Part shown: positions 13,501 through 35,423 of the stretch, piece after piece
How the letters are laid out: each line of letters opens with the position of its first letter
Numbering within the stretch: the first letter of the stretch is position 1
From: Chaetodon trifascialis
Taxonomy: Eukaryota
Length of the DNA: 64,000 nucleotides
Assembly: GCF_039877785.1 (NCBI RefSeq)
Contig: NC_092066.1
Coordinates: 5,379,152 to 5,443,151, forward strand
Reading direction: 5' to 3'
Program-made: the position numbers and the translations under genes
The notes under the pieces: generated by a model
What the model saw: the letters and a program-made list of their open reading frames with translations, nothing else
Databases searched by the model: none
What the model was told of the DNA's origin: nothing

Positions 13501-16500
13501 ATCTCTCTTTGCTCACTGGAGTGCTCCTCTGTGTGACCTTATTTTGGCGAGGTTGCTAAGTTAGCATAGCTGAAATTTCAAATACTGCCTTTTATGAGCA
13601 CGGCATGAGTTTGTCACCCGGTTACTGTTTTGAAGGGAAGAAGTTATCAGTTATTATGCCCTTTTTTGTCATTTTTAAGATGTTAAAAATGATCACTCTT
13701 ACCTGGTGTTGCTTTTGGCGGCCTGTTTTAATTTTAGTCTTAGTCTAGTCTTTGTGTCAAGCTGTCATTTTAGTTTTTATTAGTTTTAGTCACGTTCATA
13801 CTCTTTTTAGTCTAGTTTCAGTCGACTTAAAGTCTGAGTACTTTAGTCTTATTTTAGTCAGAGTTATCCGGGACTATTTTAGTCTAGTTTTAGTTGATGA
13901 AAATTGTATTTTACTCTCTTTTTAGTAATGCAATTCTATTTAACCCAGTCAATATAGTATAAGTACCTAGTAATATAGACGAAACCAAAATTATCTTTTA
14001 GCCAAACCCATTTCACAATTCAAACAAGGTTGTCTTATTATATATTGTTACCTTATAGAGTCAAGAATACACCCATTCCAGACACCAAGACGCTCTGATG
14101 TGAATTTACAACATATTTATTTTACCAAGCAAAGCCGGCTGGCCATCGGTCCTGTTCTCTGTGTCGGTTGTCTGTCGTTAACATTAACCTACCGCAGCTG
14201 CATCTTCTAAATAACGCCGTGAGTGGGAACTAATGCCGTGATGTCACCTGCGACTGCGCAGTGCGACCTGAAGCAGCCCCTGAAGTGAGACACAGGAAAC
14301 AGAAATACTGCAAAATAATAAGAACAACGCGACTAAACGAGACGAAATAACGTTAGAACATTTTGTCTCGTCTTGTTTTAGGCAACTAAAATAAAGAGAC
14401 ATTTTAGCAGAGTTTTTATTTTGTAAACCACATTTAGTTTCATTTTTATTCGTCATCAATATTTCATTATATATTTAGTTATAGTTATCGCCACATGACC
14501 AGCATTTACGTTGCGTCTCGTCTCCTTTTCGTCACACGATAAAGGTTCGTTGACAACGATATTTAGTCAGAATTTTCGTTGACCAAAGCAGCACTACTCC
14601 TACCTCCAGATCAGCTCTGCCTCTGAATAATGGTTGTGTTGCTGTCTGGACTGTATGGGAACCAATATGAGCCTCAAAGCATGTTTTGATAAAGCTATTG
14701 AAAGTGCTTTAACTGTGTGTTTGTGTTCATTGTTTTAGGGCAAAGTTGTAAAGAAGCCTGCGCAGGACGGAGCTGCAGGCAACACAGCAGAGGTAGAGAA
14801 ACAGATGATCTTCAGGAAGTCTTTCTTTCTTTCCTTCAGTCACCTCGCATTACATTTAGAGCGACTTTTAACCTTTTCCCTCCCAGTCTGTGTCTGTGTA
14901 TTTATCCACCAGTCTGACATGTTGCCGTCTTACTCACTGTGGTTCAGGATTATAAAAGGCCTGTTTCAGTCACCCAACCCATCCCTGAAAACAACCCCTT
15001 TCTGTTGTTTGTCTCCAGGGTCTCCGCTCAGCTCCCAGCAGAGACTATTATAGTTGACATGTTTTTTTTTCCTCCACTCTCAACATGAAACCCACCCCCA
15101 CACCTTGGCTCCACCACACGGTCTTTGTGCATGCATGTGTGGAAGATAAGAGGAGGAGGTTGCAATGTGCCCAGACTTGTTTCTCTGCTTCCCTTTTCAG
15201 CGTGTCCATGGAAGATTTAAGCCCTTTGTACTTCTGCAAAAACAGCAGAAATAAGTCAGTTCAGTCAGAATCCTTTTCCCCTCACTTCCTCCTCTTTATC
15301 TCACCATATACAGTGTAAAAAGTGAAACTATGTGACGCTTGATGAGTTCATTTGACTTCTCGCTCTTTTATATGTCTCTCAGCCTTTTTGTCCTGCTGAC
15401 GTACACTTCAGCTGTAGATCCAGACTTTTGGCTTCACACAGGAAAGCATCTTGATGTTAGTTTTGGATTTTTAAGCAGTATTTTTCCTGTTGTTTCAGAA
15501 TGAAGGTGCAAACAGGTCCTTGTTTGACCAACTGGAAGACTTCCGTATTGATCCAACCCAGCCTGAAGACAGACAGGTTTGGCCTCTGAGAGCAAAATAT
15601 GTCACCATAGTATCATTTCAGCATAATCTGACACATTATCAACTATCTCTCCAACAAATAATCCAAGTTTTAGCTTTAGTGCTCATTCATTGGGTAATGT
15701 AAGAAAACTGCAGGTGGCCAGAATGGGTTCAGAACAGATGATGACGATATTTTTCTGTTACGATAGATTCAGAGTCTCTCTATTTTCTTTGTGTATGTTA
15801 CTTAAATGTTGTCAGTTATTATTGTTTCATGCACAGCGTTATGATGTGTTATATTAGTGTATTGTGATGACCAGAGTGAGTGTGAACTGTGTACAACCCA
15901 TGAAGAAAAGCTGCTAATATACAAAAATCAGGATCTTGATTGAATCTCACGGTGTCTTTCAGGATGTGGAGGATCTTATGGAGTGGTGGAACACAGTGGA
16001 AGGTAAATCATAAATAAAATGTTTTTCACTTTGTTTGGCTTTCTTTGGGCTGTGTTTTAAGAGTGGAAGGCCAGTTTTTTAGTTTAACCTTGAACCACTT
16101 ACACTGTGTGACCAAAATATGTGGACGTGCCTGTTTACATACCCTAGTGTGCTGTTTTTCTTGGTTTGGACCCCTACGTTCCTATTAAAGGAAATCTTAA
16201 TGCTGCAGCATACATTTATATTTTAGAAAATAGTGTTCCTCGTTATAAAGTTTCAACATGATGGTGCTTCTGTGCACAAAGCCAGGCCCATAGAGAAATG
16301 GTTTAGTGGCCTGCTCAGAGCCTTGACCTCAACCCCATCCAACACCTTTGGGATGAACTTGAACGCAGACTGCGAGCCAGACTTTATCTCTCCAATGTCA
16401 GTGTCTATTAAAACAGCATATTCGTGCCCATACTTGTGGAATAATGCACTGGATGTTTTGTGTCCACATACTTTTGGCCATATAATATAAGTAGGATTGT

Positions 16501-16587
16501 GAGAAAGCTAATATCGTTCTTTATTACTCCTTCAGTTTGGGAAGACACGCCTCAAGATGATGACATGACGGAAAAAGAAGAGGCGAA
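8617..16587 (+). CDS. ApoL-repeat gene 1, middle exons: additional repeat modules and linker exons joining the array to the ApoL domain
   Basis: Exons carry AG...GT boundaries and are in frame, phase 0 unless noted.
- 8617-8682: DKEKAERSSENTSTTEKPKAKQ
- 8798-8845: NGFSAMMKSTFYTDKQ
- 9041-9109: EKNPDSDREEILDSGEGQPSQKQ
- 9214-9267: SKLAETMTKLNPFRSANK
- 9407-9478: PEKQAGSDDEDPPASSEKSSGNKQ
- 9861-9914: STVVGAMSKLNLFRSANK
- 10355-10420: KDTEDTETLKEDGKQVEEKPKM
- 10688-10765: VKGNMIQRESKERSETPSVPPRPTEE (weak donor gttcac; an in-frame stop lies 15 nt downstream)
- 10875-10934: EMKSISTYSKVKPRGTEGHQ
- 11146-11226: DNKDVNSREKKAKAAESPEVPVRPSDE
- 11320-11364: ELSRAERRALQKHHQ
- 11592-11663: SQSDDEGLKNEESAEAKGRDESKT
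- 12259-12309: TKVKKHHNPFMPRAAAK
- 12542-12634: APSDDEGLGEEDDPSSKEEQKDEEGKDKTEE
- 12769-12819: TKVKKPKRHNPFMPRVK
- 14739-14792: GKVVKKPAQDGAAGNTAE
- 15499-15576: NEGANRSLFDQLEDFRIDPTQPEDRQ
- 15963-16002: DVEDLMEWWNTVE, ends in phase 1
- 16536-16587: (V)WEDTPQDDDMTEKEEA, ends in phase 2
The 10688-10765 and 25956-26036 exons of the two genes are clear paralogs. Confidence 0.6.
10461..10508. repeat. (CA)n microsatellite
   Basis: A perfect dinucleotide run, with a (GT)n partner at about 10637-10678 on the other side of a short unique segment. Both lie in an intron of gene 1. Confidence 0.95.
13690..14600. repeat. putative non-autonomous DNA-transposon relic, rich in TTTTAGTC/TAGTCT words and with internal palindromes
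   Basis: The words ttagtct/ttttagtc recur densely between 13730 and 13900. A palindromic segment lies at 14330-14390 (cgactaaacgagacgaaataacgttagaacattttgtctcgtc). The element sits within the intron between exons 12819 and 14739. The family is unknown. Confidence 0.3.
16090..16490 (+). mobile_element. internally deleted Tc1/mariner (Tc1-like) DNA transposon relic inside an intron of gene 1
   Basis: The translation contains the Tc1 transposase C-terminal motifs (FQHDGASVHKA...PAQSLDLNPIQHLWDELERRLRARLYLSNVSV, spread over frames because of frameshifts). Inverted terminal repeats are gtgaccaaaatatgtggacgtg (about 16108) and tgtccacatacttttggcc (about 16461). Confidence 0.6.
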
Positions 16588-17078
16588 GTAAGTGAATAGA
16601 TGTTCATATTTATATAACAATAATAATGTAATATTTCACTGTCTGGCATCTTTGCTCTCTCAAAGTGGTATTCAGCCATGCAGATTTCACGTGGAGTGTT
16701 GAGATGTAAAATATCTTCCACGACCTCAATATAATTATGAGAATAAAATTTAATTTGTTCTCTCCTCAAATCTCTGAAACGTCGCATTTGAAAAACTATG
16801 ATTGATAAAAACAGTGACTCAGAAACAATGCCAGCACTCCTCTGGATAATCCACAGAACATGCTGTCAGATGGTTCCTTTATTAGAGTAGCTCCAAAGAA
16901 AAAGCTGATGACAGAAGGTTGTGTGGATTATCAGAAAATCAGAACCTGGTTTCTACGGTTTTGTGGGAGTCGAATGGTTAAATGAAACGATCTGCATGCA
17001 GACGTACACCAGTGGTGAGTGAGAGACGATGACGTTTAAAGATAATGAAGGTTATAACTCTCGTCTTGCTTCTCTCAG

Positions 17079-18021
17079 GGCTTTTGCTGTGACGGCGGAG
17101 AAGGTGCAGAAGGGCATCCGTGTCTTCAACAAACTGTTCTCGGAGCGCGCTGAGAGCCTCTGGCAGCACGTCATCGACCTGAACAGCATCGCAGACGGCC
17201 TGGACAAGTTCAGCAAAAACACAAAGATCGCTCAAATCACCGGCGGCTCCACCAGTGCCATCGGGGGCGTGGCCACCATCGCCGGCCTCGCTCTGGCACC
17301 GGTCACCATGGGAACCTCCTTGATTGTGACAGCGGTGGGACTGGGTGTCGCCACGGCTGGCGGTTTGACGTCGGCAGGCGCCGGCATCTCCAACCAGGTC
17401 AACAACTCTATGGACCGCAAGAAGGTGGAGAAGATCGTGCAGGATTATCAGGAGAAGATGGTCGACCTCAACAAGTGCCTGAAGTTCATCAAGCAGGGAA
17501 TCGAGAACCTGAAGAAGTTCGACCTGATCAAGATGAAAGAACACGCCTACAACCGCGACTTCCCTGTGCTCAGCAGTAGTTTCTACGAGGACGGCGCCAT
17601 GGCAGGAAAGGCCATCCTCATCAACGCAAACGAGATCATGCGCGTGGTGCAGATCGCCAACGTGGCGGGCAGCACGGCGGCCAGAGCGGTCCAGATCGCC
17701 AGCATGGCCACCGGTGTGCTCACCGGACTCTTCGTAGGTATGGACATCTACTTCGTGGCCAAAGACTCCAAAGAACTCAAGAAGGGGGCCAAGTCCGAGT
17801 TTGCCGCCAAAATCAGGGAGGTCGCCACGCAGCTGCACGACGGTCTGGTGGAGCTGAACACGATACGAGAGGAGCTGCAGTGCACCGGGCCGGAAAACAA
17901 GGACGCAGGCGAAGAGAAAGAGAACGAGAAAGAAAACAAATACGACAGTTCAGATGAAGATGAAATCGACCGCATTAAAAAAGCCATTAAAAAGGACATC
18001 GAGAGCCGAGAATACGTTTGA
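17079..18021 (+). CDS. ApoL-repeat gene 1, terminal exon: a complete apolipoprotein-L (ApoL) domain plus a short acidic tail, with the stop at 18019-18021
   Basis: The acceptor is tctctcag|g at 17078, and phase 2 gives K-AFAVTAEKVQKGIRVFNKLF... The translation has the hallmarks of the ApoL family. A glycine/alanine-rich hydrophobic hairpin (KIAQITGGSTSAIGGVATIAGLALAPVTMGTSLIVTAVGLGVATAGGLTSAGAGI) is followed by ...ILINANEIMRVVQIANVAGSTAARAVQIASMATGVLTGLFVGMDIYFVAKDSKELKKGAKSEFAAKIREVATQLHDGLVELN... This matches the long ORF 17029-18021 in the track. An AATAAA at about 19622 could be the polyadenylation signal. Confidence 0.85.
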
Positions 18022-21000
18022 CAGGAACAGGTCAAGGATTCAATGGGAAGTCAGTTTCTCAGTTCCCCCATTTTAAGTGTTTTTGATGTGCCGCACAAAC
18101 CTCAGCATGCTGCTGCTTTGTTAGCATCTGAGAGGTGTTTGGTGCCAGTTTCTTAAAATGGAAAACTAAAATCAGGCCAGTTCTGAAAGCACAAAGACTA
18201 CAGAGGAGGACATACAATGGTTTCTAAAACGTGTGGACTTCTTGAATCACAACAGAGAACAAACAGCATTTATGCGACACTACTACGTGTGAAACAGCCA
18301 CGTTATGTTTAAGAAAATGAGATTCAAATATTTAACTAGCTGATGTATTTGATTATTCCAGTTTTAGATTCATTGAAGAAATAGGTGCAAAGTATTTTTC
18401 AGACTTTTATAATTCAGACTTTAACGTATTGCTTAGAGTTTCATACTGAAAGACAAGGATCAGGTGTGGAGACTGTGTGTACTCTTAGTGATTAGTGCCT
18501 TTATTAGTTATGATGCAGTAGGAAATAACAGTACAATGCAACGTAGCACGAGTCTGTTTCCTTGTGTTTTAACTGGGCTGCAACAAACCACTTCTCCCAG
18601 CTTGAGGCTTGATGATCAATAGGCTTTGTTTTACGTTGTTTTTACAAAAAGAGGCGATGAAATGACCGACTCATGGTGAGAAAGAACCAGGACGAGGTTA
18701 CACCAGCTGCTCGTAAATCCATCACTTTGTGAGTGAAGTCCTTGCTAGCTTGCTTGCTTAGTTCTTACTAGCTGCCATCTACTTTCAAGATAGTGGGTTA
18801 CACATTAAAATTTAAGGAATGGCTCATTTACGAAAGACTTTTTAGTAATTCGTAAATCACTTTTTGGGAAACATCTGTGGCGTCAAAAGTGTGTAAACAG
18901 GAAGCCACAAGCAACACAACTTCCAAACACGCTAATATGACCAGGGTCATGTGGTCGTTTGCTGTAGTTCAATGTTTTAAAGGATTTTTTGGTAATTTGT
19001 TGTATAATGTGTGTTTTTTTTTTAACATAGTTATTAAACAGCATTTCGATCAGGTGTCAGATATGTCAACCATATTTACGTCAGGCTAAACTGGTCATAT
19101 ATTAGCTGGCTAATGTTAGCTTTGACAGGCGGTTCTGCTAGCTTAGCATTTACACCTGGATGCTGCTGGATTTAAATATTTAGTAGCAACTTAACTCTGT
19201 CTGAGAAAGCTTTTGTGGAGCTACTGCTTTTAATTTAGTGACGGGTGAATCTCCACTCAGTAAACACTTTGAAGCACAAGAGTACTTTTAAACGTCTGAA
19301 CGGGTGGTGCGAGCCACAGGTCTTCTGTCATATTAGATGTTTTAATGCTTTCCAGGTGAAAAGGTATCCCTTATTAAACAGCTGACTGTTAAAAACCAGC
19401 CTGGACTGTGTCAGCCGGTCCTGAAAAGACCTGTTTGCTGCTTCCGTTAATGATGGCATTGATTTTTAATAGACTCTTATCTCAAAGTCCATGTTTGATA
19501 TGCCGTCTGATGATGTCAGCTCCGATTAATGAACCTAATATTTATTTTTCAGTCCTATTCTGGGTGTTGTTCAATAATGATACCTTTTAATGTGCAATAT
19601 ATTGTAAAACTCTGTGTGTAATAAATGCAAATGTAAAATTGATAATTAAAGGTCCAAAGAACATTTTCTGCCAGTTTGTGTATTTTGTAAAGTCTGTTTC
19701 CCACCAAGCAAACACTTTATTTCCTTCTGCTGACCGATGTGTGCTTACTGGTGTTACATGCTCAGATAATATCCAGGAGAAACTTCTTTGTCAGTCCTTC
19801 AACACTATTTACTTTTCTTCAGTCATTTCTGTGATGGATGGAAGTCTGCTGGCTGCAAACGTCTCAGTATTTCTGTCATCTGTCACAGTTTTGACATGAT
19901 CAAACCTGTTATCTTGTATAAACACTGTTATGAGAGTACGGTTACATTTATGTTGCCATTACAGGCAATATTTTGCCACCCCCCACACACCACCCAAAAA
20001 AACAAAACAAAACAAAAAAAACCCTGACATATTCATTGTTTTTGTTTTTTCATAGAGACAAAGATGAAATATGTATAATAACACAGATGTAGGGTGACAC
20101 CTGAATGATGGTCAGTACTTCATATTAGAGTGATTTACTAATGTTCAGACCAAATAAAACACTAATACACTCAACAATGACAGTCAAAGCCCATCGTGGC
20201 TTCACACAGGGCCACAGACTACACCCAAGCAGAACAAAGCTGCACCGTGCTGGTCGGGGTTTGGCGCGCACACCCACACCCAACAGGTGTGGTTACAATT
20301 ACATGTGTATATTTATATTTATATGTGCGTGCGTCTGAATTATTTTCCTGTTGTTAGGGGGAGGTTTTGGTTCAAAACATCATTTATTTAGATGATCTAA
20401 TAATATAATTGAACAGTTAAATTATCAAACATAATAATGAAAAATAGAATGTGAGATGTGAAATGATCAGAAAAAATAAAACTTCGTTCACACGTCATTG
20501 TTCTGGTTTCAGGTGAGCGTTGCATTTTTCCTCTCTGTTTTTGACACTGTTGACACTCCTGAAACTGATGAGTCACAGCCAACAGGCACAGGTAGACCTC
20601 AAACTGGCCACGCCCCTTCTCAGGTGCGTCCACAGACACCAGAAACCCAGGACGGAGAACGAATCCGCATCCTCTCGACTGAGGAAACCAGGTGAGATGT
20701 TCGACTTTCGATGCTGCGTTTAATCTTGGGAGCAGTTATCAGACAGACTGAGTGACTAATATTTTTTTTTATTTGGCAGAAAGTCGCCTTGTTATATAAC
20801 AGGTGAGTTCGTTGTGAGGGTTTGAGGCTCAGGAGCTCCCAGGGCGTGTTTTGGTTTGTTTAAGATGCTTTGTTCGACCTGTCAGGAGTGTTGCCTTTGG
20901 GTGGTGTCGGAAATGTTGGTGTAATGTGGAGGTCAGAGAATCATGGGAACAGGTAGCTTGAACATGAGCAGATAAGATTGAAAGCTGCATTGACAGTGAT

Positions 21001-24539: not shown

Positions 24540-26441
24540 GCAGGATGGAGGCGTGTATGATGAAGCCAGAAGTCAAAAAGAAGCCGAAGCTGGTGAGAAC
24601 AGTCACAGGTTTACTGAATATTGTAGAACGTGTAAAAAAACACAGATGGAAATATGAATTACTGCATCATCACTCAAAGAGCCTCATGTTTTCTTCTCTG
24701 CTCGCAGCCTAAACCTCCTCCAAAGCCCACAGAGGTACTGTAACAACCCTTTGATCAGTCAATCATTAGCTTGAGTGGTTGTTTATGTGCGACTTCAGGA
24801 TGTTACAGCGAGTTAAACTGTCGTTACAGAGACAAAGAAATGACCCAGAGAGACCAGCTCCTCTGGTGCCCCCCCGACCTGCAGACACTGTGAGTGCTCA
24901 CCGACCTGGAAGACGTCCTGATCTTTTACAGACCAGAGGTGTTTCTCTGAAGGGTCTGCCATATGTTTTTATTATGTTTACCTTCTACTGGAGGAGCAGT
25001 GTGCCAACATTTCTAAAGATCTGCTAATGTTGAAATAGATTGCATAAGCTGGGTTCCAGTGGAGAGATGTTTTCCACTCTGTGAGGTGGAAAACTGAAAG
25101 ATAATCCACAAAATCCAGATCAGCAACAAAGATATATGTAGTTTTTATGCTGCACACGCATTAAAACTTAACACAGGTGTACCTACAGGCCAGTCTAAAA
25201 CCAGTATGACAAAGTGCTCCACCACTGAACGTGACTGCTTTTAGCTGTGTTCTGTTGTCATAAGTTTTCTTTGAGGAAATGCCCTCTTTGGTTCTTTAAA
25301 TAAAGGTTGAATGAATGAACATTAACACAAGCTGACGTCTGTAATTAGCCACTGATCAGGACTGATATGAGCAGTAAAAACAACAAACTCTCGTAAAGCC
25401 GCTGAAGACACAGAGGAAATATGGAGCACAGGCCACTTTATAAGATTTACTTGGAGACGAAAATATTTTAACCATTCGTGTTTTCTGTGCAGGAGCTGAG
25501 TCAGACACAATACCGCATGAAAAGAGCAGCAATGAACAATGAGGTACCTTCTTTTTTTACATTTCCATTATTTCTGTTTTACTCGATAGTTTCCTGTAAA
25601 GAGAGATCGAAGCGGGGGAGGGGATGATGTGTGAGAATATCCTGGTAAATGTTGAGGACAACCAGACTTTTCTTGATTTAAATACAAGTAAAACAGGGAT
25701 TTGTGATGGCGAAGTGGTTCAGACACATGCTGTGAAAAAAATCATCTTTGAACAAAGAAAAACAAAATGAGATATGAAAGATCATGTGACAAAAATGATG
25801 CTACAGACGCACCACCAAAAAGATCAGTGCTTTAAACATCAGTGTCATGATTTAATATGTGGGTTTACATGTCCAAACTATATTCTGACGTACCAAAAAC
25901 ACTCTTATTATGGCTGCCTTCAGGTGTTTTTCCTCACTTTTTTTGTGTGTTTCAGACCAAAGGAAACTTGATCCAAACAGAGACAAAAGAGAAACCGACT
26001 GAATCTCCCGTGGTTCCACCCAGACCCACAGAAAAGGTACGAAACACCCAAACACTCATCATATCATGATACTCAGCAGTACTAGTATTGTCGTATTTTA
26101 GAGCAGTGAGAACAATTTACAGTGAAGAACCGACCAGAGCTGCACGAGGTTCCACGTTTCTGTTCCTGTTCCAGATCTCTTTTGTTATTGTTCCCTCGTG
26201 TGTGTGTGTTTGTGTGTGTGTGTATGTGTGTTTGTAGGAACTGAATGCCACAACCAGATACAGTGAGCGCAGGAGGGTACAAGCTGAGGACACACAGGTA
26301 CACACACACACACACAATGAAATACTTTGTTCCTCCTTGCTTGGTTTTATAAATCACAGTTATCGTCCTTCCTCTTCCTCATCAGACTTCCAGAGAAAAC
26401 AACCAATCAGAAGCGCCCAAAGATGAGGCAGACTTCAAACA
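24540..26441 (+). CDS. ApoL-repeat gene 2, N-terminal exons: putative start ATG at 24545, then proline/basic-rich VPPRP modules
   Basis: Exons are phase 0 with AG/GT boundaries.
- 24540-24592: ATG at 24545, MEACMMKPEVKKKPKL
- 24708-24734: PKPPPKPTE
- 24830-24889: RQRNDPERPAPLVPPRPADT
- 25493-25543: ELSQTQYRMKRAAMNNE
- 25956-26036: TKGNLIQTETKEKPTESPVVPPRPTEK
- 26238-26297: ELNATTRYSERRRVQAEDTQ
- 26385-26441: TSRENNQSEAPKDEADFKQ
The 25493, 25956 and 26238 exons are paralogous to gene 1 exons 11320, 10688 and 10875. The true initiator could lie further upstream. Confidence 0.5.
26197..26234. repeat. (TG)n microsatellite (imperfect)
   Basis: A gtgtgt run immediately upstream of the acceptor of exon 26238, in an intron of gene 2. 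Confidence 0.9.
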
Positions 26442-26593
26442 GGTATTTCAGCTGGAGCTGTTATCGGCTGTCACGTAGTGCAGTTCAACCCTGATCCCAG
26501 AAACGACGGGACGCTGTGTAAAACATTTCAGAAGTCGGTGATCAGCGAATCCTTCTAATGCTCAATTATTATTATTCCGTGTGCTTTGTTCAG

Positions 26594-29500
26594 AGTGATC
26601 CGACGGTCCTGACTGGGATGTTTCGGCGGAGCCAAAAAGGCCAAACGCCTTCGTTCACTGTAAGCGATGCAGCTGCAGCTCGTCTCTGCTCCGTAAATCA
26701 CACATGACCTCTCTAAGTTAAAACCAGAGGCTCAGTTCAAAACATCATCTGCTTTTTGAAGGTTTTTAGAGTCAGTGTAACTTGTCGTTTGTGTTTGCTT
26801 CACCTGCAGAGGACAATTTTGAAACAACAAAATCTTGATATGTAGGCCTACATGATCTCATAGATGTTGATTCAAGAACTTAAATATACTAATACTCAGT
26901 CACATAAAGCATAAACGTGTGTTTTAGAGCTTTGAATCAGCAGCTGTTGAGTGTCTGTCTGGTTTTCTTTCTTCCTCAGAGCTATCTGATCGACAGCTGC
27001 GCTGAGGAGGAAAAGTCTGACGATGCCCCGGCCAAACAGGCTCCTGGCAGCAAACCGGTGTGTGCGTATGTACATTATGCGTGTGCGTCACTGTTGATGT
27101 TCTCAGCTGGTTTGTGACATGTGACTGCGTTCAACAGAGTGCTCTGAAGGGAGTAATGAAAGGATTACAGTTCAAGTCATCACCGAAGGTATGAAGCACC
27201 GCCTGCCTCGGTGTTTTCTGCTGGTGGCGGCTGCAGTGTTACAGCGTCTTACACCTGTAAAAAGTACCCTCTCCTGTGTGGTGGCGGTGGTAGTAGTAAC
27301 GACATGTGGTTTTATTTTTCTCTGCTGGCACATCCCTGTTGAAGAATCAGTGCATTACATCCTATTTTTTTACATTTCTGTATCAAAATGTTCATATCTT
27401 TCAGTGTTTTACCTCCTGGATTTATTTTAATGTTTATTTTTTATCGGACTCCTTTGGTGGCTTCAGGGTCTTTCGTCCAGTCTGGGACTTTGGTTGCGTG
27501 TCGTTCTCTGTCTGCACTCACTTCCTGTCATCTCTCGGCTTGGAAACATTCTCTCACTGTCAGCATTTAAAACCTGCAGCGTCACAGCTTCACACAGTGA
27601 CACATGTGGGCTTACGGTTACGCGCTGCTGCCTGACGTTGAAATAAAGATAGAGCACAGTAGAAAGCATAAAAGAAGTAAAATACAACATTTTGAAAGGA
27701 GTGCAGCAGCGCAGACTGTGAGTGCAGTCTGGATCTGGAAAGTCATAAAAGCTAAAGTGAAGACACGTTTTTAGCTTTCCTTTAAAAATATTTAGCAGGT
27801 GAGATCTGCCTGTGATCCACAAAGGCTGCTGCTGGGAACACTGGTCAGAATTTATTCTGTTTATTTTAAGTTTTAAATTAAATTTCTCAGTAAGGTCACC
27901 TGAAACTTTGAGGACTTTTGGCTTTTAACTTTAAGATGTTCATCCTCCTTCATCCACAAAGCAGTTGTAAATACGGACGATGAGGTGACTGGAAGCAACA
28001 GGACGATCTTTATGAAACGTTAAGCAGTCAAAATGTCTGTCTGTTCTCTCGTCTGCTTGTACTGATGATAAAATCAGGATGATCATAATGTCGCTGAAGA
28101 TTGGTGTCTCTTCTCTAAGGCCAGTGTGGAGCCAAGTCCAGGCGGCGTCACGGAGGACGCAGGCGCAGAAAAGGAACAACCTGCAGAAAGAAACAAGCAG
28201 GAGAAGAACGCAGAACCCAAACAGGTAAGAGACGAATGACAGCGTCTGACTGCCGTCGCTAATATGTGCTTTCACAGTGTGTTCACTTAACGGCGTTAAC
28301 ATCTGATTTTTTGTGTCAACCTCTCCGTCAGGACTTCGGAGGTCTGATCGCCGGAATGTTTCGGAAAACTCCCAAAGAGAAAACGCCATCTCCCGCGCTG
28401 ACGGTACCATCGAGTCTTCTGCTCGTTTTCTGGTCCAACGTTCTGACTTTCAGCCTCTGACTCTCTGTTTTGCTCACTGACAGGTCAGCAAAGCAGACAG
28501 CGACCCTGAAGATGCAGAAGAAGCAGAGGAGAAAACATCTGAACAATCCCACGTAGGTCTTCTATTTATTTCTTCTTTTTTCGCTCTTCTGAAACATAAG
28601 AACATTTGGAGTGGAGGGGGGTTTTAAGGATGGATCCAGGCCCCCGCTATGTGTGGCTATGAGCTTCTCACTATCAGCAGATCTGTGAGGGGATTCAGTA
28701 ATCAGCGTCTGCAGTCAGTCAGCTGACGACGGTTTGACCTCGTCAGCGGCACAGAGCTCAAACTGTAATCTCTTCAGTTGTCACTCACTTGTTTAGTGTT
28801 TGGATTCCCAGAAAAAGTCAGAGTCAGATAAGCGTCCTGTGTCTGAACATCCCAGCCACTTTCAGGCGGCGTGTCTTCTGTTTCCTTTATTTGTATCATC
28901 ACAAACTGAAATCTTTTGCAGGAAAAAGGAGGCTTCTTCTCCGGCATCCTTAAAAAACCCAACAAAGCACCAGAGGAGACTCCTGCACAGGTGAGGGACA
29001 AAAAGTGGCTTCTTCCTCCTTAAAACACAACAGAAAAGTTAATGTTGGTGTTTTTCATTTCACTGTGTGTGTTTCTTGCTTCCCGGTGGTGTTTCAGGAG
29101 AATCTGAGTGTCAGCAGCGAGCTGTCCGCCAGCAGTGACAGTCTGTCTGAAAACAAGGTGAGCAGCTCTGCGTCACCGTCCCAAACTTATCTTTAATGAC
29201 AGTGTACACACAGACGCCTCACTGACCTGACCTTGACCAAAATAAATCCTCCATTACTGAACGTGTGCTCGTGTCTGTCTCAGGAAAAAGGAGGAATATT
29301 CAGCGGGTTGTTCAAGAAGTCTCCGAAAGCGGCAGAAGCGGCTCAGACCGACGAGGTGATGGAGCTGAAAACAAGTCAGCAAGATAAATAACGTCATCAG
29401 TTTAATCCACACTCACACTGAACCAGCTCGTGTTGTGTTGCAGGACCAACAGTCTCTACATGACAGTCTGTCAGGCAGTAACGACAATCTGTCTGAAAAC

Positions 29501-32500
29501 TCAAAGGTGAGCTCAGCAGTGTTCGTATGACAGCAGCATCGTCAGTGTTATCACATGCAGCAGTCACTGACCCTGCAAATCTGCCTGATGTCAGCAGGAG
29601 AAAGGAGGATTTTTCAGCGGGATCCTCCGGAAGTCTCCCAAGATTCCCGGAGAGGGAACACCTGGGCAGGTAAAAACGGTTTTGCACATGTTTTAGATGC
29701 TCAGTAACAAAACAAACAGATGGAGTTCGGCGTGTGAGTACATGAAAGATCAGAGTAATCGAAGTGGTCAGCGACGGGGATCTTCACTTTCTGTCAAACC
29801 GCTGAGACTTTGTTGTTTATGTTTGTTTCAGGATAAACAGCAGCTGCAAACGGACCCATCAGACAGTAAAGAGACTGAGAACAACAGCACGAACGTAAGG
29901 AACCCAGAGTGACTGAGTTAAGGAGGAGGCTGACTCTTATATCCACTTTGAACACTCCTCTTTTCCTGCTAACGACTGACTTCAAGCCTGATGTGTTAAT
30001 AGAAGCTGATTTGTAGCTTTACGTATTTCTTTCCTCCTTCCTGTATTTCCTGTACCAATAACTGAAAGAAAGAAAAGGTTTTTGCGAGCGAGTTCTTCTC
30101 TTCTTCACGTTATCAGGAGAAAGGAGGCGTTTTCAGCGGCATGTTCAAGAAATCTCCCAAACTGTCAGAGAAACCCCGACTGGAGGAGGTAAAGATTTAT
30201 AATCTGAGCATCTGCAGAATGGATGAAGTCATCTGAAAAGTAACTAAAGCTCTCAGACAAATGTAGTGGAGTAAGGTTACATTTCTATTACTCTAGTAAA
30301 GTACAAGTACCTTGAATTTTGTACTTAAGTACAGTCTGAATTGTGGCTCACGGCCTCCTCAGCCTTCCTGTCAATCTTCAGTCTTCATACTCTCACAGGT
30401 GCAGTAACTCTTGTGTTGCTCGTGTTGTGTTCAGGGTGCAGAGTCGTTGCACGGCGAGCTCTCCATTAGCTCCGACAGCCTGTCGGAGAACAAGGTGAGT
30501 CCTCATGATGGAAGAATATCTGCAGCTCCGGAGGAGGATCGGCCTCCTGATGCTGAAATGAAAGAAAAGAGGTCGTCGGTTTGCCTCAATGTGTTTTCTG
30601 CTCTCTGTAGGAGAAAGGCAGTTTGTTCAGCGGACTCCGGAGAAAGACTCCCAAAGCAGCCGGAGAGGTACGGCTCCTCAAACACGAGCAGGTGTCATGA
30701 GCATGACCACATGCAGCGCAGCCAGTTCGATGGATGTTCTTGAATGTGCTCACAGGCTGTAACATGAGTCATTGAAGTATTGAAGCATCTTCTGTTTCCT
30801 GGAGCTGCTCTCTGTTTCTGACTGTTTTATTCTCATTTCAGGAGAATCTGTCGGCACAGAAAGATCTGTCAGCCAGTAACGACAGTCTGTCTGAGGCTGC
30901 CAACACCAAGGTCAGCTTTTGCTGTAAAAGGAAGATTTGATTTCATTGTGTACATTTTCTATATTTCTTCATTAATTCGTTGTTGTCTTTCTGATTGTAG
31001 TAGTATGACGTGTCTCCATGTGTTTCCACATATGTTCTATGTCTGGAAGACTGAATTTAACTGTGACGTGTAAAATAAATGACTGTGTTTCAGGAGAAAG
31101 GAGGCGCCTTCAGTGGAATATTCAAGAAGTCGACCAGGCTTGCAGACAGTCCTCCCACAGAGGAAGTAAGACGTCCTCTCTGTTTGTCCCATCCAGTCTT
31201 CCTTTAATATTCTTAAACAGGTGTCAAGTGTCTCATAGGTAGTTCCTTTTAATCTCAGGTGTAAAAGAGCAGTCAGGGAGCTGGGCTCAGTGTTAATGAT
31301 GAAACATACTGTGGCTCTGACTGTTGTCGTCTTTCCTCAGGACAAACAGCCACCAGGCGATGAGCTCTCAGGTAGCAGTGAAGCTCCGTCTGAGAGCAGC
31401 GCCAAGGTGAGTTTTTCTTTTCTGCTTCATTCAGAAAACGGTCCTGAATAACTTCAGCTGAAGAGAGAGCACCCACTGCATGAACATGTGTGTTTCAGGA
31501 AAAAGGAGGAATATTTAGTGGAATATTTAAGAAGGCTCCAAAACCTGCAGACGCTGCTCAACCGGAGGAGGTAAAACTGTCATTTACAGCAAAGTCGACC
31601 TGTTTCATTACCTGTTTGTTGGTGGAAAATTAGGAACAAAAACTCAAGTGATTAGACGTTGGTGCAGATTCAGTATTTGAGCATTTTTTTTAACATTTTC
31701 ACATGATCGTCATGTATCCCATGACCATCTGTTATCAAGATATACTAATGCAAAACCTTTTATCACTTCTCACAGGACGAGTCTCCTGACAAAGAGCTCT
31801 CAACCAGCAGCGAAAATCTATGTGAGAACAAACAGGTGAGCGAGTTTAAGACGATGAATGACTTTGTTTCGTAAATGCTTCACACTCTCGCAGCTCATCC
31901 TGAAGCCTTTTTCTTGTCTGTCTCATCAGGAGAAAGGTGGACGGCTGCTCAGCGGACTCCTGAAAAAGACTCCCAAAGCGTCTGGAGAAAAGACGGAGTC
32001 GCAGGTGAGTTAGTGTTTACAGGACGTGAGATCAGTTTCCAAACCTGCACACAAATTCACCTGTTTCATAAAACATCAACGGGCCTGTTTCAGGACAGAG
32101 AGGCTCAGAGCGAACTGTCGGCCAGCAACGACGACCTGTCTGAGGGCAGCAGCACCAAGGTGAGCAGCGCAGCAACAAAAAGCTCCAGGTACACGTCTTC
32201 TGAGGGAGCGTTCACTGACACCCTGCTCTCTTTCAGGAGAAAAATATCTTTAGCAACATGTTTAAGAAGCCGCAGAAAGCAGCAGAGGGTGCTGCAGCAG
32301 ACAAGGTACCGAGATTTGATTCGGCCCATTAAATCAGCGTTATTTTAGTAAGTGTAGTGGATTTTTACTGTCGTCTGGTCTGAATGCAGGAGCTGGAGGA
32401 GAACAGTAAAGATCGGTTATCAGGCAGCTGTGAAAATCTGTCCGACGCCGCCCCGAAGGTACTTCAGCATCAAAAGAAAGCCTCTTCTTCTCTGTTTTTC

Positions 32501-35423
32501 TGTGTGCTGCTGTCACATGAACACGGACTGAAACCTGATCACAGAGATCAGATTGAGGATGAGATGATATCTGTGTGTTCAACTAGAACAGATTACAAAT
32601 ACAGATAGGCACATCCTCGAGTGTGAGTGCGTCAGTTTGAGTCAGGTTGAGCTGACTTCCTTTGGGAGCGGCAGTAACTTCTGACTCTTGATTCACTCTG
32701 AATGTGTTCACTTGAGAAAATTGACAAAGATCTGTGTTTCAGGAGAAAAAAGGAGGCCTGGCTGGCATCTTCAAAAGGTCATCCAGCATCGATAACCTTT
32801 TCGATGAGGTGAGTGTCGGCCCTGTGCGGCCTCTGTTACGCCTGACGATAACGTCACTTTGACATGAATGAAATGAAACCGTGTTAATGGCTTTTTATCC
32901 CTGGTCTTAAATCAGGAGAAAGGTGGGCTGTTCAGTGGACTTCAGAGGAAGAAAACACCCAAAGCGTCTGGAGATGAAGCAGCTGCAGAGGTGAGTTTTA
33001 TGTTACGCTGCGAGCATCACTGTCTGTGGTTATCGTCCGCATTAATACAACGTCCATTGCTATTTTTTCAGGACAAAGACGACCAGAAGGAGCTGATGGC
33101 AAGTAATGACAGTCTGTCTGAAAACAACACCACCAAGGTACAGTGTTTATTTAAATTCACTTTAACATGCAGCAGACTTTCTCATGTACATAAAAAACAC
33201 ATTTTAGAATATTTTAGTTTGTTTTTGCTTCAGTTTGCACTTAAAAAATGAACATTTCGACATGCCAGTGCTGTTTTGTTTTATTTTTAACTGTGTTCAA
33301 TGTCTGTTTGCAGGAGAAAAGTATTTTCAGTGGCATGTTCAAGAAGACTTCCAAACCAGCAGAGGAGACGACAGCAGACGAGGTACAGTAATGACTCCTT
33401 CACATGAAGTTTATACTTTTGCTCTTAGTTTTGCTCTTTCTTATGTTTTATTTTCGGTTCAGGAATTAAACGCCGGTGATGATCAGATGTTCTCTGCCAG
33501 TTGTGAAAATCTGTTAGAAGCGACCACATCAAAGGTGTGAATGATGTCCGACCATCACACACAGCCTGTTTTTCTCTGTTCTGCCACTTACGATTGATTG
33601 TTTACGTGTGGATGTTTCGTCCGTTTCAGGAGAAAACTGGAGGACTGGCAGGGATCTTCAAGAAGTCTCCCAAGCCGGCTCCACGCTCCATTGTTACTAA
33701 GGTGACCGGAGGAGCTCGCTTTGTTTGATCTCATTTCTGTTTTTTATGGTAAAATTCTTCAGAAATAACCTTCAGCAAGTTGAAAAAAAAGTTCCTTTTT
33801 GTCCTCCAGGATCCGCTGAGCGACTCAAAGGAGCTGTCCGCCAGCTGCGACAGCCTCGTAGAAACCGCTGAGGTGAGACCTGAAGTCTGTGGATGCACTT
33901 GGTGACACTCAGAACAGAAAGCACGAGAAAGAAACGCTCAGCACACTTAAACCCTGCTGGACCAGCACTACCAGGAGACCTCGTGATTTAGACATTAGCC
34001 GCCACATCTGTACTTTATGTGGTGCATTCACACAAAATAAATTAAATCTGTATTTCAGTTTTATACTTTGTCCTCCAAGTACGACGTTGAAGCCCTGCGT
34101 GGCATCAGTGTTTCATTAGACGAGCGTCCATTCAGCAGCCACATTAATGACACAGTTTAGGGTTGTTTTTCCGACTTTCTTCATGTGTTACAAGCATAAA
34201 TACATGTTTGCAGCTCGTTCACATCAAGCAACAGCTGCTTTGCGGCTGTGCTTTAATGCGACAAACTGTTGTTGTCTGTCGTCGCTCATTTCAAATCTCA
34301 GCGAAGCCGCTGCTGCTCAACATGCAGCGAGCTGCGATCAAATCTCGTGTTCGTTCAGTTCAGCTTTAACGTCTGTTTCCTGACAACAGAAAACAGATGT
34401 TAAAAGAGCATTTGAAGCTCAGTTTGCAGAGCCTTCCTCTCTCCTGATCCTCTGCCAGCAAACATATAAGACAGATTGTCGGTGCCATTATTTACAGCTT
34501 TACATTTACTTTTTAACATCCCAGTTGGTTTTTGAGCTGCGACCCAGATGTTTCAGTGTCAGTAGCTGCGTTTCCATTACAGTTGTTCGCAAAATAAAAG
34601 CGATATTTCTGAAATTTCGACAAAGTTCAAGTGCTACTTGCAGGTGTTTCCATTGAACGGTGTTTTGCGAACTAACCGAAATTCTCGTAAATTCTCGGCC
34701 GTCCCGCGAGACTGGAAGATGGCCGAAAGCGTTATGCGTCTCGGTACACTGATCTCAGGAGCTGGTACGGCTGTTGCTGTCCTTATTATGAACAGAAGGC
34801 GGAGGCAACGTATAACTGTTCAAAGGCGAAGCCCTTATGTGTGGCAGCGGCCACGAATAAGGGATTTCTGGGAGAAGATTGTAAATGAGGAATTCACAGA
34901 CGAACTGTGGATACAACATTTTCGGATGACCCGGGCCACGTTCAACGAGCTTTGCGATGTTCTTGAACCTCTTGTGGCACCAGATGCGACATGTAAATGC
35001 GAAAAAAGTGTTTCCATTACACTTTTGCGATACGCTTTTATATTGACACGTCTGAAAAACCACCTCATGAGAGCGTAAAAATGTTTTTGCGATATTTGAG
35101 AGGATTTTCGAAATATAGGTGTTTCCATTACCAGTATTTTATTGCGATATTTAGGTTTTGCGCATTTCTAGGGGTAATGGAAACGCAGCTACTGACTCCA
35201 AACACTGAAATTTATTTCATTTTATTTTGCAGGAGGATCAACTGTTTACTAGTCAGGATAATCTGTTGGAAGCTGTGAGCGCCTCAAAGGTGAGTCTTGT
35301 AGAGTGTATTATTATTCTGTCAGCTCGTTCGGACTTTCAATGAATGCTTCATGTTTTATCTGTTGAACAGGAGAAAAAAGGAGGGTTTGGTGGAATTTTC
35401 AGGAGGACGCCCAAAACACATCA
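26594..35423 (+). CDS. ApoL-repeat gene 2, exon-pair repeat array: about 33 short phase-0 exons, mostly alternating type A (EKGG-FSG-FKK-PK) and type B (D--ELS-S-DSLSEN--K)
   Basis: All exons have AG/GT boundaries and lengths that are multiples of 3.
- 26594-26659: SDPTVLTGMFRRSQKGQTPSFT
- 26980-27057: SYLIDSCAEEEKSDDAPAKQAPGSKP
- 27138-27188: SALKGVMKGLQFKSSPK
- 28120-28224: ASVEPSPGG...EKNAEPKQ (AAG acceptor)
- 28332-28403: DFGGLIAGMFRKTPKEKTPSPALT
- 28484-28552: VSKADSDPEDAEEAEEKTSEQSH
- 28922-28990: EKGGFFSGILKKPNKAPEETPAQ
- 29098-29157: ENLSVSSELSASSDSLSENK
- 29284-29355: EKGGIFSGLFKKSPKAAEAAQTDE
- 29444-29506: DQQSLHDSLSGSNDNLSENSK
- 29598-29669: EKGGFFSGILRKSPKIPGEGTPGQ
- 29832-29894: DKQQLQTDPSDSKETENNSTN
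- 30117-30188: EKGGVFSGMFKKSPKLSEKPRLEE
- 30435-30494: GAESLHGELSISSDSLSENK
- 30611-30667: EKGSLFSGLRRKTPKAAGE
- 30842-30910: ENLSAQKDLSASNDSLSEAANTK
- 31094-31165: EKGGAFSGIFKKSTRLADSPPTEE
- 31341-31406: DKQPPGDELSGSSEAPSESSAK
- 31499-31570: EKGGIFSGIFKKAPKPADAAQPEE
- 31776-31835: DESPDKELSTSSENLCENKQ
- 31930-32004: EKGGRLLSGLLKKTPKASGEKTESQ
- 32094-32159: DREAQSELSASNDDLSEGSSTK
- 32237-32305: EKNIFSNMFKKPQKAAEGAAADK
- 32390-32458: ELEENSKDRLSGSCENLSDAAPK
- 32743-32808: EKKGGLAGIFKRSSSIDNLFDE
- 32916-32990: EKGGLFSGLQRKKTPKASGDEAAAE
- 33072-33137: DKDDQKELMASNDSLSENNTTK
- 33314-33382: EKSIFSGMFKKTSKPAEETTADE
- 33463-33534: ELNAGDDQMFSASCENLLEATTSK
- 33630-33701: EKTGGLAGIFKKSPKPAPRSIVTK
- 33810-33872: DPLSDSKELSASCDSLVETAE
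- 35233-35289: EDQLFTSQDNLLEAVSASK
- 35370-35423: EKKGGFGGIFRRTPKTHQ. Confidence 0.7.
34551..35209. mobile_element. non-autonomous Harbinger (PIF/Harbinger superfamily) miniature DNA transposon in an intron of gene 2, carrying a remnant of the HARBI1-like transposase N-terminus
   Basis: Terminal inverted repeats are tttcagtgtcagtagctgcgtttccattac (34551-34580) and gtaatggaaacgcagctactgactccaaacactgaaa (35173-35209). Sub-terminal gtgtttccatta(c) repeats occur at 34644, 35010, 35121 and 35170. The internal ORF 34638-35078 encodes ...RRRRQRITVQRRSPYVWQRPRIRDFWEKIVNEEFTDELWIQHFRMTRATFNELCDVLEPLVAPDATC..., the conserved N-terminal region of Harbinger/HARBI1-type transposases. The DDE core is absent. 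Confidence 0.65.

Follow-up and report, generated by a model that had tools for sequence, protein, structure and literature searches.

Two neighbouring genes of the butterflyfish Chaetodon trifascialis carry related proline-rich exons on opposite sides of a long array of short exons, which raises the question of how one module has come to occupy different places in two paralogs. The preliminary description of the window (the whole stretch of 64,000 nt analyzed here) offered two answers: either a block of exons was transposed after the gene duplication, or the 5' region of gene 2 represents a partial duplicate joined to a new promoter. As shown below, the difference in module order is real and old, and ordinary reshuffling of frame-neutral exons is its probable cause.

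Two Tandem Genes Encoding ApoL-Domain Proteins

The window contains two tandem genes on the same strand, both encoding ApoL-domain proteins with a long N-terminal region made of 45–105-nt phase-0 exons (Table 1). The ApoL domain (PF05461) is matched in gene 1 with 124 bits (E 1e-35, above the gathering score), and partial ApoL domains score 85 bits in gene 1 and 77 bits in gene 2, the cut-off being 25.9. In the N-terminal regions no Pfam domain was identified, the p47_phox_C match being sub-threshold. Exon positions given in the preliminary description hold within 1 nt, all of these exons being phase 0 with AG/GT splice sites.

Gene 1 belongs to the teleost apol1 orthogroup, judging by full-length collinear identity and matching module order. 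It agrees exon for exon, over 33 exons and with 100% identity, with P0003 (Chaetodon trifascialis "protein starmaker-like isoform X2"), and is 64–96% identical to 24 orthologs. The RefSeq isoform X2 skips array exons 7397–7465 and 7557–7628. The names that RefSeq gives to gene 1, such as starmaker-like, piccolo, and titin homolog, were assigned automatically because of the repetitive region. A gene-1 5' end outside the window, with a hidden N-terminal PxxP block, was considered and rejected, as the RefSeq start at 2607–2663 splices straight to the array.

Gene 2 belongs to the teleost orthogroup labelled si:rp71-1g18.13 or "apold1a", with collinear similarity along the full length, from the N-terminus to the charged tail. 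Its 48-exon model was built in the present analysis, a Chaetodon gene-2 protein being absent among the matches; it is covered completely by proteins of Larimichthys, Xiphias, Clinocottus, Solea, and Alosa at 46–77% identity (P0123 from Larimichthys, 77% identity and 100% coverage). Splicing of gene 2 as one transcript is suggested by predicted protein models of other species, RefSeq included. We found no publication on gene 2 in the literature. An acceptor at 24539/24540 precedes the ATG. The preliminary description had proposed that 20.5–24.5 kb be checked for further exons of gene 2, and there proved to be no coding ones; a first exon that is probably non-coding ends at 20692, and 20547–20692 shows weak similarity to the leader as translated in the Lycodopsis model P0001. 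In the region of 18–24.5 kb as a whole, neither coding exons nor RNA genes were found.

Orthologs and syntenic loci, whose comparison had also been proposed earlier, were examined: the tandem order of gene 1 and gene 2 recurs in turbot and cunner, the module order at the turbot locus L001 is, at the DNA level, the same as in the window, and each of the two arrangements is conserved across most of its orthogroup.

Table 1. Positions of the main features of gene 1 and gene 2 in the window.
Feature	Position	Strand	Comment
Gene 1	2607–18021	+	Exact match to RefSeq "apolipoprotein L1/starmaker-like" protein
First coding exon (MERYDNLDLDLECEGGGVA)	2607–2663	+	Exact match to P0003 aa 1–19; without proline-rich module
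Array	4601–8496	+	14 alternating phase-0 exons, GMFKK type and SSDSLSEN type
Post-array NPF exons	9214–9914	+	9214–9267 SKLAETMTKLNPFRSANK; 9861–9914 STVVGAMSKLNLFRSANK
Acidic exon	9407–9478	+	Between the two post-array NPF exons
Proline-rich exon 1 (VKGNMIQRESKERSETPSVPPRPTEE)	10688–10765	+	blastn E 2.7e-8 to 25952–26038
Companion exon (EMKSISTYSKVKPRGTEGHQ)	10875–10934	+	
Proline-rich exon 2 (DNKDVNSREKKAKAAESPEVPVRPSDE)	11146–11226	+	DNKD..PEVPVRPSDE
Companion exon 2 (ELSRAERRALQKHHQ)	11320–11364	+	
HNPFMPR exons	12259–12819	+	12259–12309 and 12769–12819, acidic exon 12542–12634 in between
MEWWNTVE exon, next exon, ApoL-domain exon, to stop codon	15963–18021	+	PF05461, E 1e-35
Gene 2	24545–40233	+	Ortholog of about 1500–1700-aa "si:rp71-1g18.13/apold1a"-labelled proteins
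Probable non-coding first exon	20547–20692	+	Inferred; 3' end at donor CAG/GTGAGA, 5' end uncertain
First coding exon (MEACMMKPEVKKKPKL)	24540–24592	+	ATG at 24545
PKPPPKPTE exon	24708–24734	+	
Proline-rich exon a (RQRNDPERPAPLVPPRPADT)	24830–24889	+	..LVPPRPADT
Companion exon a (ELSQTQYRMKRAAMNNE)	25493–25543	+	
Proline-rich exon b (TKGNLIQTETKEKPTESPVVPPRPTEK)	25956–26036	+	Paralog of 10688–10765
Companion exon b (ELNATTRYSERRRVQAEDTQ)	26238–26297	+	
Exon TSRENNQSEAPKDEADFKQ	26386–26442	+	Last exon of the interval treated in the preliminary description
First GMF-type exon	26594–26659	+	
SYLIDS exon	26980–27057	+	
NPF-like relic exon (SALKGVMKGLQFKSSPK)	27138–27188	+	
Main array	28332–35424	+	About 29 phase-0 exons, GMFKK and SSDSLSEN types
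Exons encoding ..RRRRTIKKKRR / VVSFRVKTTLPK	35641–35988	+	RVxF-like motif across exon junction (slash)
MEWWNTVKG exon, ApoL-domain exons, E/K/R-rich tail of roughly 400 aa, to stop codon	37059–40233	+	

A Proline-Rich Module on Opposite Sides of the Array

The two paralogs share a conserved two-exon module, N[ML]IQ...VPPRPTE followed by E[ML]...T.Y, with the consensus N[ML]IQRE.KE..ETP.VPPRPTE + E[ML]K.T..Y (peptide form ETPVVPPRPTEKE[LM]K..T.Y). In gene 1 all four proline-rich and companion exons are located 3' of the GMFKK/SSDSLSEN array, yielding the order array–NPF–PxxP–NPF–ApoL, whereas in gene 2 all seven exons from 24545 to 26442 are 5' of both the first GMF exon and the main array. The difference in order noticed in the preliminary description is upheld by blastn, by reciprocal HMM searches, and by counts in protein sets (see below).

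When 9–12 kb was compared with 24.4–27.3 kb by blastn, the sole significant match was between 10684–10767 and 25952–26038 (72% over 87 nt, E 2.7e-8); it ends at the exon edges, and no intron similarity remains. An HMM built from the N-termini of gene-2 orthologs matches 18 out of 25 gene-1 orthologs, hitting only post-array modules (best E 1e-11, compared to E 5.8 for the best of 500 shuffled decoys). Conversely, the HMM of the gene-1 module matches gene 2 of the window at aa 64–109 (E 1e-8) and 40 of the 121 gene-2-set proteins, at a median relative position of 0.04, with none of 605 decoys matched. Outside the array and the ApoL region, this module is the only part significantly common to both paralogs.

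The two proline-rich units of gene 1 look like mutual tandem duplicates, and both resemble the second unit of gene 2. A swap or circular permutation of the units, in which unit 2 of gene 1 would correspond to unit 1 of gene 2 (as RPSD[AE]ELSR had suggested), is unsupported, because in basal acanthomorphs the gene-1 units are both tandem duplicates of the NMI[QP]RER type resembling gene 2's second unit. The ELS-(R/Q) exons paired in the preliminary description are present at their sites; the specific pairing of 11320 with 25493 is not established. A full reversal of three module classes (PxxP–NPF–array versus array–NPF–PxxP) was also rejected: homology between the NPF exons of the paralogs is not significant, only Megalops reaching E 0.3, and the post-array NPF exons of gene 1 have no significant counterpart in gene 2.

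Age and Spread of the Two Arrangements

Both arrangements are ancient. In the gene-1 set, PxxP follows the last GMFKK unit in 72 proteins and precedes the first unit in none; in the gene-2 set, it precedes the first unit in 55 proteins and follows the last one in a single protein, a chimeric Lota model. The gene-2 arrangement, with PxxP at the N-terminus, is observed in Megalops and Anguilla (tarpon and eel, Elopomorpha), Alosa, Osmerus, and percomorphs, as well as in a mudskipper paralog labelled "apold1b", and the MExC..KP.VKK N-terminus of gene 2 is kept from Megalops to percomorphs. The gene-1 arrangement extends from shad to percomorphs, Alosa and Hypomesus already having array–NPF–PxxP–NPF–ApoL. 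The N-terminal arrangement is the more widely distributed of the two, being found from Elopomorpha to percomorphs, and this does not support the suggestion that the gene-2 5' region is a partial duplicate on a new promoter.

In catfishes the position of the module is fluid. The apol1 of Silurus, a gene-1 ortholog, has PxxP at aa 17–37 and no array, and gene-1-type proteins of Neoarius contain repeated [GMF – PxxP/ELRN – acidic – NPF] super-units, in which the module is interleaved with array units. The gene-1-type protein of one elopomorph, Aldrovandia, combines the array with NPF units and lacks the PxxP module.

The closest relatives in gar, paddlefish, and bichir (300–420 aa) have neither the array nor the PxxP module, and six-frame translation of the gar locus, including 10-kb flanks, revealed no array or PxxP exons. 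Outgroups without the modules do not polarize the order change. Dating the arrays relative to the duplication by a phylogeny of array exons also failed, these exons being too short, with nearest neighbours mostly within a gene and a few across genes.

Exon Symmetry and Tandem Duplication

All 43 exons of gene 2 from 24708 to 36900 and 30 exons of gene 1 from 4601 to 15576 are multiples of three in length and are flanked by AG/GT sites. Both N-terminal regions thus consist of symmetric exons with one phase at both ends, and homologous exons occupy non-collinear positions in the two related genes, as is typical of exon shuffling. Since none of the exons disturbs the reading frame, the protein stays intact when units are duplicated, lost, skipped, or moved. 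Tandem duplication of two-exon units is visibly ongoing: in gene 1, the units 6390–6628, 7205–7468, and 7536–7814 are 68–86% identical, introns included. Around the PxxP exons we observe no surviving junction, no transposon signature, and no homology past the exon edges.

Probable Reshuffling of Exons and Its Alternatives

We consider it probable that the difference arose by ordinary exon reshuffling, in which symmetric cassette exons were duplicated, lost, and rearranged in the teleost stem. Such shuffling is generally promoted by exon symmetry, by disorder, and by SH3 motifs (Schad et al., 2013; PMC3632108). In the proteins of both ancient paralogs, the ApoL membrane domain is C-terminal, and the long N-terminal region, probably disordered, is made of dozens of phase-0 exons, whose classes encode short linear motifs: basic/hydrophobic GMFKK-type units, acidic serine-rich SSDSLSEN units, NPF units in gene 1, an RVxF-like unit in gene 2, and the two-exon proline-rich unit. 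The different sites of the module would most likely go back to the teleost stem lineage. There, super-units of several exons would have been duplicated in tandem and then lost differentially, or else the array would have grown on opposite sides of the proline-rich unit, each arrangement being subsequently fixed. Neither orthogroup yielded an intermediate that has the module at both ends, so that differential loss has no direct witness.

An unlikely alternative is a single genomic translocation, or a duplicative insertion with loss of the source, that moved the proline-rich block in one paralog after the duplication. The proline-rich module alone being significantly common outside the array and ApoL, at opposite ends, and the stability of each arrangement across most of its own orthogroup agree with such an event, but homology stops at the exon edges with no junction or transposon signature, and the catfish orthologs show the position changing via tandem duplication and loss of super-units. 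Being too old for junctions to survive, a translocation would be indistinguishable from stepwise shuffling. Of the block transposition proposed in the preliminary description, the difference in order stands; a recent translocation is unsupported and a single transposition is not required, given that all exons are symmetric phase-0 cassettes, two-exon units duplicate in tandem, the order varies in catfishes, and the change is ancient. The Aldrovandia protein without the module fits equally well a secondary acquisition by gene 1: originally devoid of the module, this gene would have received it through ectopic recombination or gene conversion with neighbouring gene 2 after the Elopomorpha split. 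Both genes lie side by side in one orientation, their common repeat exons could mediate the exchange, and elopomorph gene-2-type proteins do carry the N-terminal module; still, we regard this transfer as quite improbable, as it relies on one unreviewed annotation from one elopomorph, in which the module may be lost or skipped, simple unequal crossing-over between arrays would not put the module after the gene-1 array, and no intron similarity is left.

Two further explanations would remove the phenomenon itself. If the 24.5–26.4 kb exons stood apart from gene 2, as a small gene or transcript in their own right or as a partial duplicate under a promoter of their own, the order difference would be an annotation illusion. 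Two GenBank annotations indeed split the 5' exons off (P0001 from Lycodopsis and P0002 from Tautogolabrus, the remainder of the latter being a separate 1020-aa gene starting 940 bp downstream). However, P0002 itself includes the first GMF exon together with the SY.. exon; splice sites are canonical and all in phase, with the first array-type exon 151 bp past 26442; the MExC..KP.VKK N-terminus is conserved as described above; and 35 of the 120 gene-2-set predicted proteins have this N-terminus, N-terminal PxxP, array, and ApoL within a single chain, in agreement with the joining of these exons to the array assumed in the preliminary description. A separate gene is accordingly very improbable. 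Convergence, or chance likeness of proline-rich motifs with no homology, is hardly credible at all: while PxxP motifs are short and common, and tblastx within the window alone yields only E 0.2, the likeness spans about 45 aa in two exons of matching length (78/81 and 60/60 nt), and is accompanied by the 72% DNA identity (E 2.7e-8) and by profile E-values of 1e-11 to 1e-14 with zero decoy matches.

Motifs and Possible Function

The consensus of class II SH3 ligands is PxxPx[RK]. This pattern is present in the module, as PVVPPR/PSVPPR conserved across both orthogroups, and the proline-rich unit fits a candidate class II SH3 ligand (PxxPxR). Other motif patterns are paralog-specific. NPFRS and NPFMPR are characteristic of gene 1, and RRVVSFRV, of gene 2; the RVxF-like motif of the latter (VSFRVK; RRVVSFRV within KKRRVVSFRVK) is found in 99 of 120 gene-2-set proteins versus none of 120 gene-1-set proteins. 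By pattern only, we take the gene-1 NPF to be a putative EH-domain ligand and the gene-2 RVxF to be a putative PP1-docking motif. Together with these paralog-specific motifs, the proline-rich module of about 45 residues likely provides the functional handles of both ApoL-domain proteins.

It is conceivable, though rather unlikely, that both genes encode uncharacterized teleost-specific membrane-anchored adaptors, combining ApoL with cassette mini-exons that bear SH3-, EH-, and PP1-type docking motifs in a functionally important order. If true, this would explain why two permuted orders have stayed fixed over a span of probably hundreds of millions of years, beside an expanding and contracting array.

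The genes themselves are already annotated, the kind of event is already known, and the re-ordering reveals no new mechanism. It provides a clean, datable example of a disordered region of frame-neutral mini-exons re-ordered between paralogs without damage. It is also of use for annotation, as the gene-2 5' exons split off in Lycodopsis and Tautogolabrus should be joined to the rest of the gene.

Comparison With Known Systems

Gene 1 is a member of the teleost apol1 orthogroup and has no differences from P0003. The large teleost "si:rp71-1g18.13"/"apold1a" proteins (P0123 from Larimichthys, P0211 from Alosa, and P0183 from Osmerus) have the N-terminal MExC..KP.VKK and PxxP as in gene 2, and likewise agree with it in their long array, RRRTIKKKRRVVSFRVK motif, ApoL domain, and charged tail. 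Among non-teleosts, the nearest relatives identified were "apolipoprotein L6-like" P0265 from gar, P0263 from paddlefish, and P0301 from bichir, which share the LLDWW..EGW motif. In gar and paddlefish the ApoL domain has an identity of about 52% with gene 1 and about 49.5% with gene 2; in bichir the values are about 45 and 40%, respectively. Unlike genes 1 and 2, these proteins are short and lack the GMFKK/SSDSLSEN array and PxxP.

The proline-rich region of p47phox, an SH3 ligand (Pfam p47_phox_C), has the core ..P.VPPRP[ST].. in common with the module; the match to gene 2 aa 78–87 (E 0.2) is below the Pfam cut-off and represents a resemblance of motifs only, with no family relationship. The locus is also similar to the genes described by Schad, Kalmar and Tompa (2013; PMC3632108) in its uniform phase 0-0 exons, SH3-ligand-type motifs, tandem duplication, and skipping of cassettes in isoforms, as well as in its repetitive, low-complexity sequence, which would be expected to be disordered. 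While that study deals with human genes generally, here two ancient paralogs retain different, long-frozen orders of one module.

Two Tandem ApoL-Domain Genes with Opposite Module Order

The window consists of genomic DNA from a vertebrate (teleost), its exons being short and its introns canonical (AG/GT). Its first 41 kb holds two same-strand genes, each with an N-terminal part formed by a long series of very short exons and each ending in an ApoL domain (Pfam PF05461). Gene 1 corresponds, residue for residue and exon for exon, to the Chaetodon trifascialis RefSeq protein P0003 (labeled "protein starmaker-like isoform X2," orthogroup "apolipoprotein L1"), and, as the two are identical from the ATG at 2607, the 5' end of gene 1 lies inside the window; the window therefore comes from this species or a very near relative. 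The gene 2 model was assembled from splice-site and homology evidence; its Larimichthys ortholog shows 100% coverage and 77% identity, and proteins of Xiphias, Clinocottus, Solea, Cyprinodon, Antennarius, and three Alosa species also cover it end to end. The orthologs bear automatic names such as "si:rp71-1g18.13," "apold1a," "titin-like," and "futsch."

The preliminary description had claimed that a block of exons, among them those of the two-exon proline-rich (PxxP) module, lies on opposite sides of the array of GMFKK- and SSDSLSEN-type exons in the two genes. This observation is real and correctly located: in gene 1, whose protein begins with MERYDNLDLDLECEGGGVA and at once enters the array, the four module exons lie 3' of the array, and in gene 2 the module precedes both the first GMF-type exon and the main array. 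The positions of the ELS exons hold as well, but their specific pairing is insecure, because in basal acanthomorphs the two gene 1 units are clearly tandem duplicates of each other (NMI[QP]RER...ETP.VP.RP.EEE[LM]) and both resemble the second unit of gene 2.

Features of the two genes and their surroundings (positions within the window)
Feature	Position	Strand	Remark
Truncated LINE-like retroelement	2-922	+	RVT_1 ORF (Pfam RVT_1, E 6e-10)
Gene 1	ATG 2607 to stop 18021	+	33 coding exons
Gene 1 GMFKK/SSDSLSEN array	4601-8496	+	
Gene 1 NPF-type exons	9214-9267, 9861-9914, 12259-12309, 12769-12819	+	
Gene 1 post-array exons of the preliminary description	10688-10765, 10875-10934, 11146-11226, 11320-11364	+	
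(CA)n/(TG)n microsatellites	10461-10508, 10636-10679, 26199-26232, 26300-26316		
Gene 2	24545-40233	+	48 coding exons, 1683 aa
Gene 2 module exons	24830-24889, 25493-25543, 25956-26036, 26238-26297	+	After start exon, before array
Gene 2 first GMF-type exon	26594-26659	+	
Gene 2 main array	28332-35424	+	
Gene 2 RVxF-like motif	35641-35712 / 35926-35988	+	RRRRTIKKKRR / VVSFRVKTTLPK, spanning exon junction
Gene 2 last exon	38587-40233	+	~400-residue E/K/R-rich tail after ApoL domain
RRM-domain ORF, exon-sized	57370-57735	-	Pfam RRM_1, E 8e-14

Homology of the Module

Comparing 9-12 kb with 24.4-27.3 kb, blastn gives a single significant match, that of 10684-10767 to 25952-26038 (72% over 87 nt, E 2.7e-8), which stops at the exon borders; as protein, this exon pair has 17 of 27 residues in common. 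A profile HMM of 17 gene-2-type N-termini matched 18 of 25 gene 1 orthologs (E <= 2e-4, best 1e-11), always at post-array modules, the best E on 500 composition-matched shuffles being 5.8. Reciprocally, the gene 1 module HMM matched 40 of 121 homologs gathered for gene 2 (median relative position 0.04), none of the 605 decoys, and aa 64-109 of gene 2 in the window (E 1e-8), and when the first 41 kb was scanned in six frames, the module turned up only at its places in genes 1 and 2. The module similarity is homology, chance being discounted. For the other gene 1 post-array modules (NPF, SDDEG, and FDQLEDF), gene 2 shows no significant equivalent.

In each gene, microsatellites directly adjoin exons of the proline-rich block: those of gene 1 lie immediately 5' of exon 10688, and those of gene 2 flank exon 26238-26297. 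This may be coincidental, such repeats being frequent in the introns of fishes.

Conservation and Age of the Two Orders

Both orders are old and conserved. Among the best 120 proteins gathered for gene 1, the proline-rich motif follows the last GMFKK unit in 72 and precedes the first in none; in the 120 gene 2 homologs it precedes the first unit in 55 and follows the last in one, a chimeric Lota model. The order array, NPF, PxxP, NPF, ApoL is already present in gene 1 of Alosa (Clupeiformes) and Hypomesus (Osmeriformes), and in Alosa, Osmerus, Megalops, and Anguilla gene 2 carries the module at the N-terminus. The tandem layout, gene 1 followed by gene 2, recurs at the turbot (L001) and cunner (L002) loci, the turbot module lying at 13.8 kb and the gene 2 array after it, at 17.3-30.5 kb. 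No intron similarity is left between genes 1 and 2 (9-12 kb vs. 24.4-27.3 kb), and therefore no recent exchange has taken place. Downstream of gene 2 in turbot (L001, 40831-48518) is a 286-aa gene with no Pfam match, which may be the true apold1a and the source of the gene 2 model names.

Origin of the Two Orders

All exons of both N-terminal regions are multiples of three in phase 0, so that the reading frame survives the duplication, loss, skipping, or re-ordering of any of them. Many RefSeq isoforms exist and P0003 skips 7397-7465 and 7557-7628, hence the exons act as cassettes. Tandem duplication is visibly active, the two-exon array units of gene 1 at 6390-6628, 7205-7468, and 7536-7814 being recent tandem duplicates, 68-86% identical with introns included. 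Within the gene 1 orthogroup the module position is fluid: in Silurus "apolipoprotein L1" it occupies residues 17-37 and the array is absent, and two gene-1-type proteins of Neoarius carry repeated super-units (GMF unit, PxxP/ELRN, acidic stretch, NPF), in which the module alternates with array units up to five times. Either order can result if a super-unit is duplicated and one array or one module is then lost; the module was not found at both ends of any protein. A simple translocation of the exon block, or fusion of a partial duplicate to a new promoter, as initially suggested, is not favoured. The N-terminal order of gene 2 (MExC..KP.VKK start) is the more widespread one and is shared by a mudskipper paralog, labeled "apold1b," with a gene-2-type ApoL domain, which argues against the 5' end of gene 2 as a late add-on.

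Outside the teleosts, the nearest relatives found are proteins of 300-420 aa from gar, paddlefish, and bichir. Both array and module are missing from them, so these outgroups cannot tell which order came first. The ApoL domains of gar and paddlefish are about equally similar to genes 1 and 2. Scanning the gar locus and 10 kb of flank to either side in every frame revealed neither element, the same scan being positive in the window and in turbot; array and module look like teleost-stem additions. The sole elopomorph gene-1-type protein, from Aldrovandia, has the array and NPF units and lacks the proline-rich module, which fits either loss there or later gain by gene 1, perhaps from the neighboring gene 2. 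The shortness of the array exons prevents a decisive phylogeny. In a third group of large ApoL-domain proteins of teleosts ("si:cabz01007807.1"-like; P0259 and P0262 from Megalops and Anguilla, P0274, P0284, and others) the N-terminal repeat arrays are quite unlike these, e.g., DLFQTTPSDSKH repeated ~30 times, hence tandem mini-exon arrays seem to have been joined to ApoL domains on repeated occasions.

Other Features of the Genes and the Window

No further coding exon of gene 2, a possibility raised in the preliminary description, and no RNA family was found at 20.5-24.5 kb. A splice acceptor at 24539/24540 opens the first coding exon five bases 5' of the ATG. Gene 2 probably has its non-coding first exon at ~20547-20692, a segment with a strong donor (CAG/GTGAGA) at its end and a weak match to the translated leader in the Lycodopsis model P0001. 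In Tautogolabrus (L002, 10001-13441 and 14382-23441) and Lycodopsis, GenBank presents the gene 2 5' exons as a separate "gene" of 142-167 aa, probably an annotation error; the P0001 translation takes in the probable 5' leader exon as well.

In gene 2 the ApoL domain is split by an intron that is filled with a long TC-rich low-complexity tract (38045-38448), and that of gene 1 is a single exon (17080-18021), lacking an intron at this point. The E/K/R-rich tail, absent from gene 1, is conserved in outline in gene 2 orthologs, ending with ..DGL.I. The gene 1 exon PEKQAGSDDEDPPASSEK.. (9406-9462), read in another frame, gives GEAGGLRRRRSTCEQREV, which resembles APEGGGLRRRRTIKKKRRV of gene 2 at 35659-35715 (tblastx, 58% over 19 aa, 26 bits) and may represent a frame-shifted remnant of the RVxF exon or a chance match. 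Upstream of gene 1 the LINE-like retroelement is cut by the window edge; downstream of gene 2 the RRM ORF, which we take to resemble hnRNP C/RALY-type proteins, represents an unrelated minus-strand gene.

Predicted Functions and Relation to Known Systems

The ApoL domain is presumably the membrane anchor, and the N-terminal regions, judged by sequence patterns, look like strings of putative docking motifs. The P.VPPRP core matches the class-II SH3-ligand pattern and is a predicted ligand; its match to the p47phox proline-rich region is sub-threshold (E 0.2). Conservation of ~45 residues around this core in both orthogroups suggests a specific partner. The NPF-type exons of gene 1 carry three NPF motifs plus an NLF variant, which are possible EH-domain ligands, and fall into two types, M.KLNPFRSANK (KLNLFRSANK at 9861-9914) and K.HNPFMPR; as a short paddlefish relative has a single RRNPFMK right before the ApoL domain, the latter type may be ancestral. 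Gene 2 has the RVxF-like motif KKKRRVVSFRVK, a putative PP1-docking-type motif that occurs in 99 of 120 gene 2 homologs and in none of 120 gene 1 homologs.

Gene 1 is already annotated in C. trifascialis, and gene 2 orthologs in many other species; no published literature on gene 2 was found, and that on zebrafish apol1 deals with kidney phenotypes, not with exon-module architecture. No new kind of element is involved. Genes 1 and 2 are a tidy case of exon-level reshuffling between ancient paralogs, and the use of symmetric exons for disordered, SH3-motif-rich modules belongs to a well-known class of mechanisms (Schad et al., 2013, PMC3632108).
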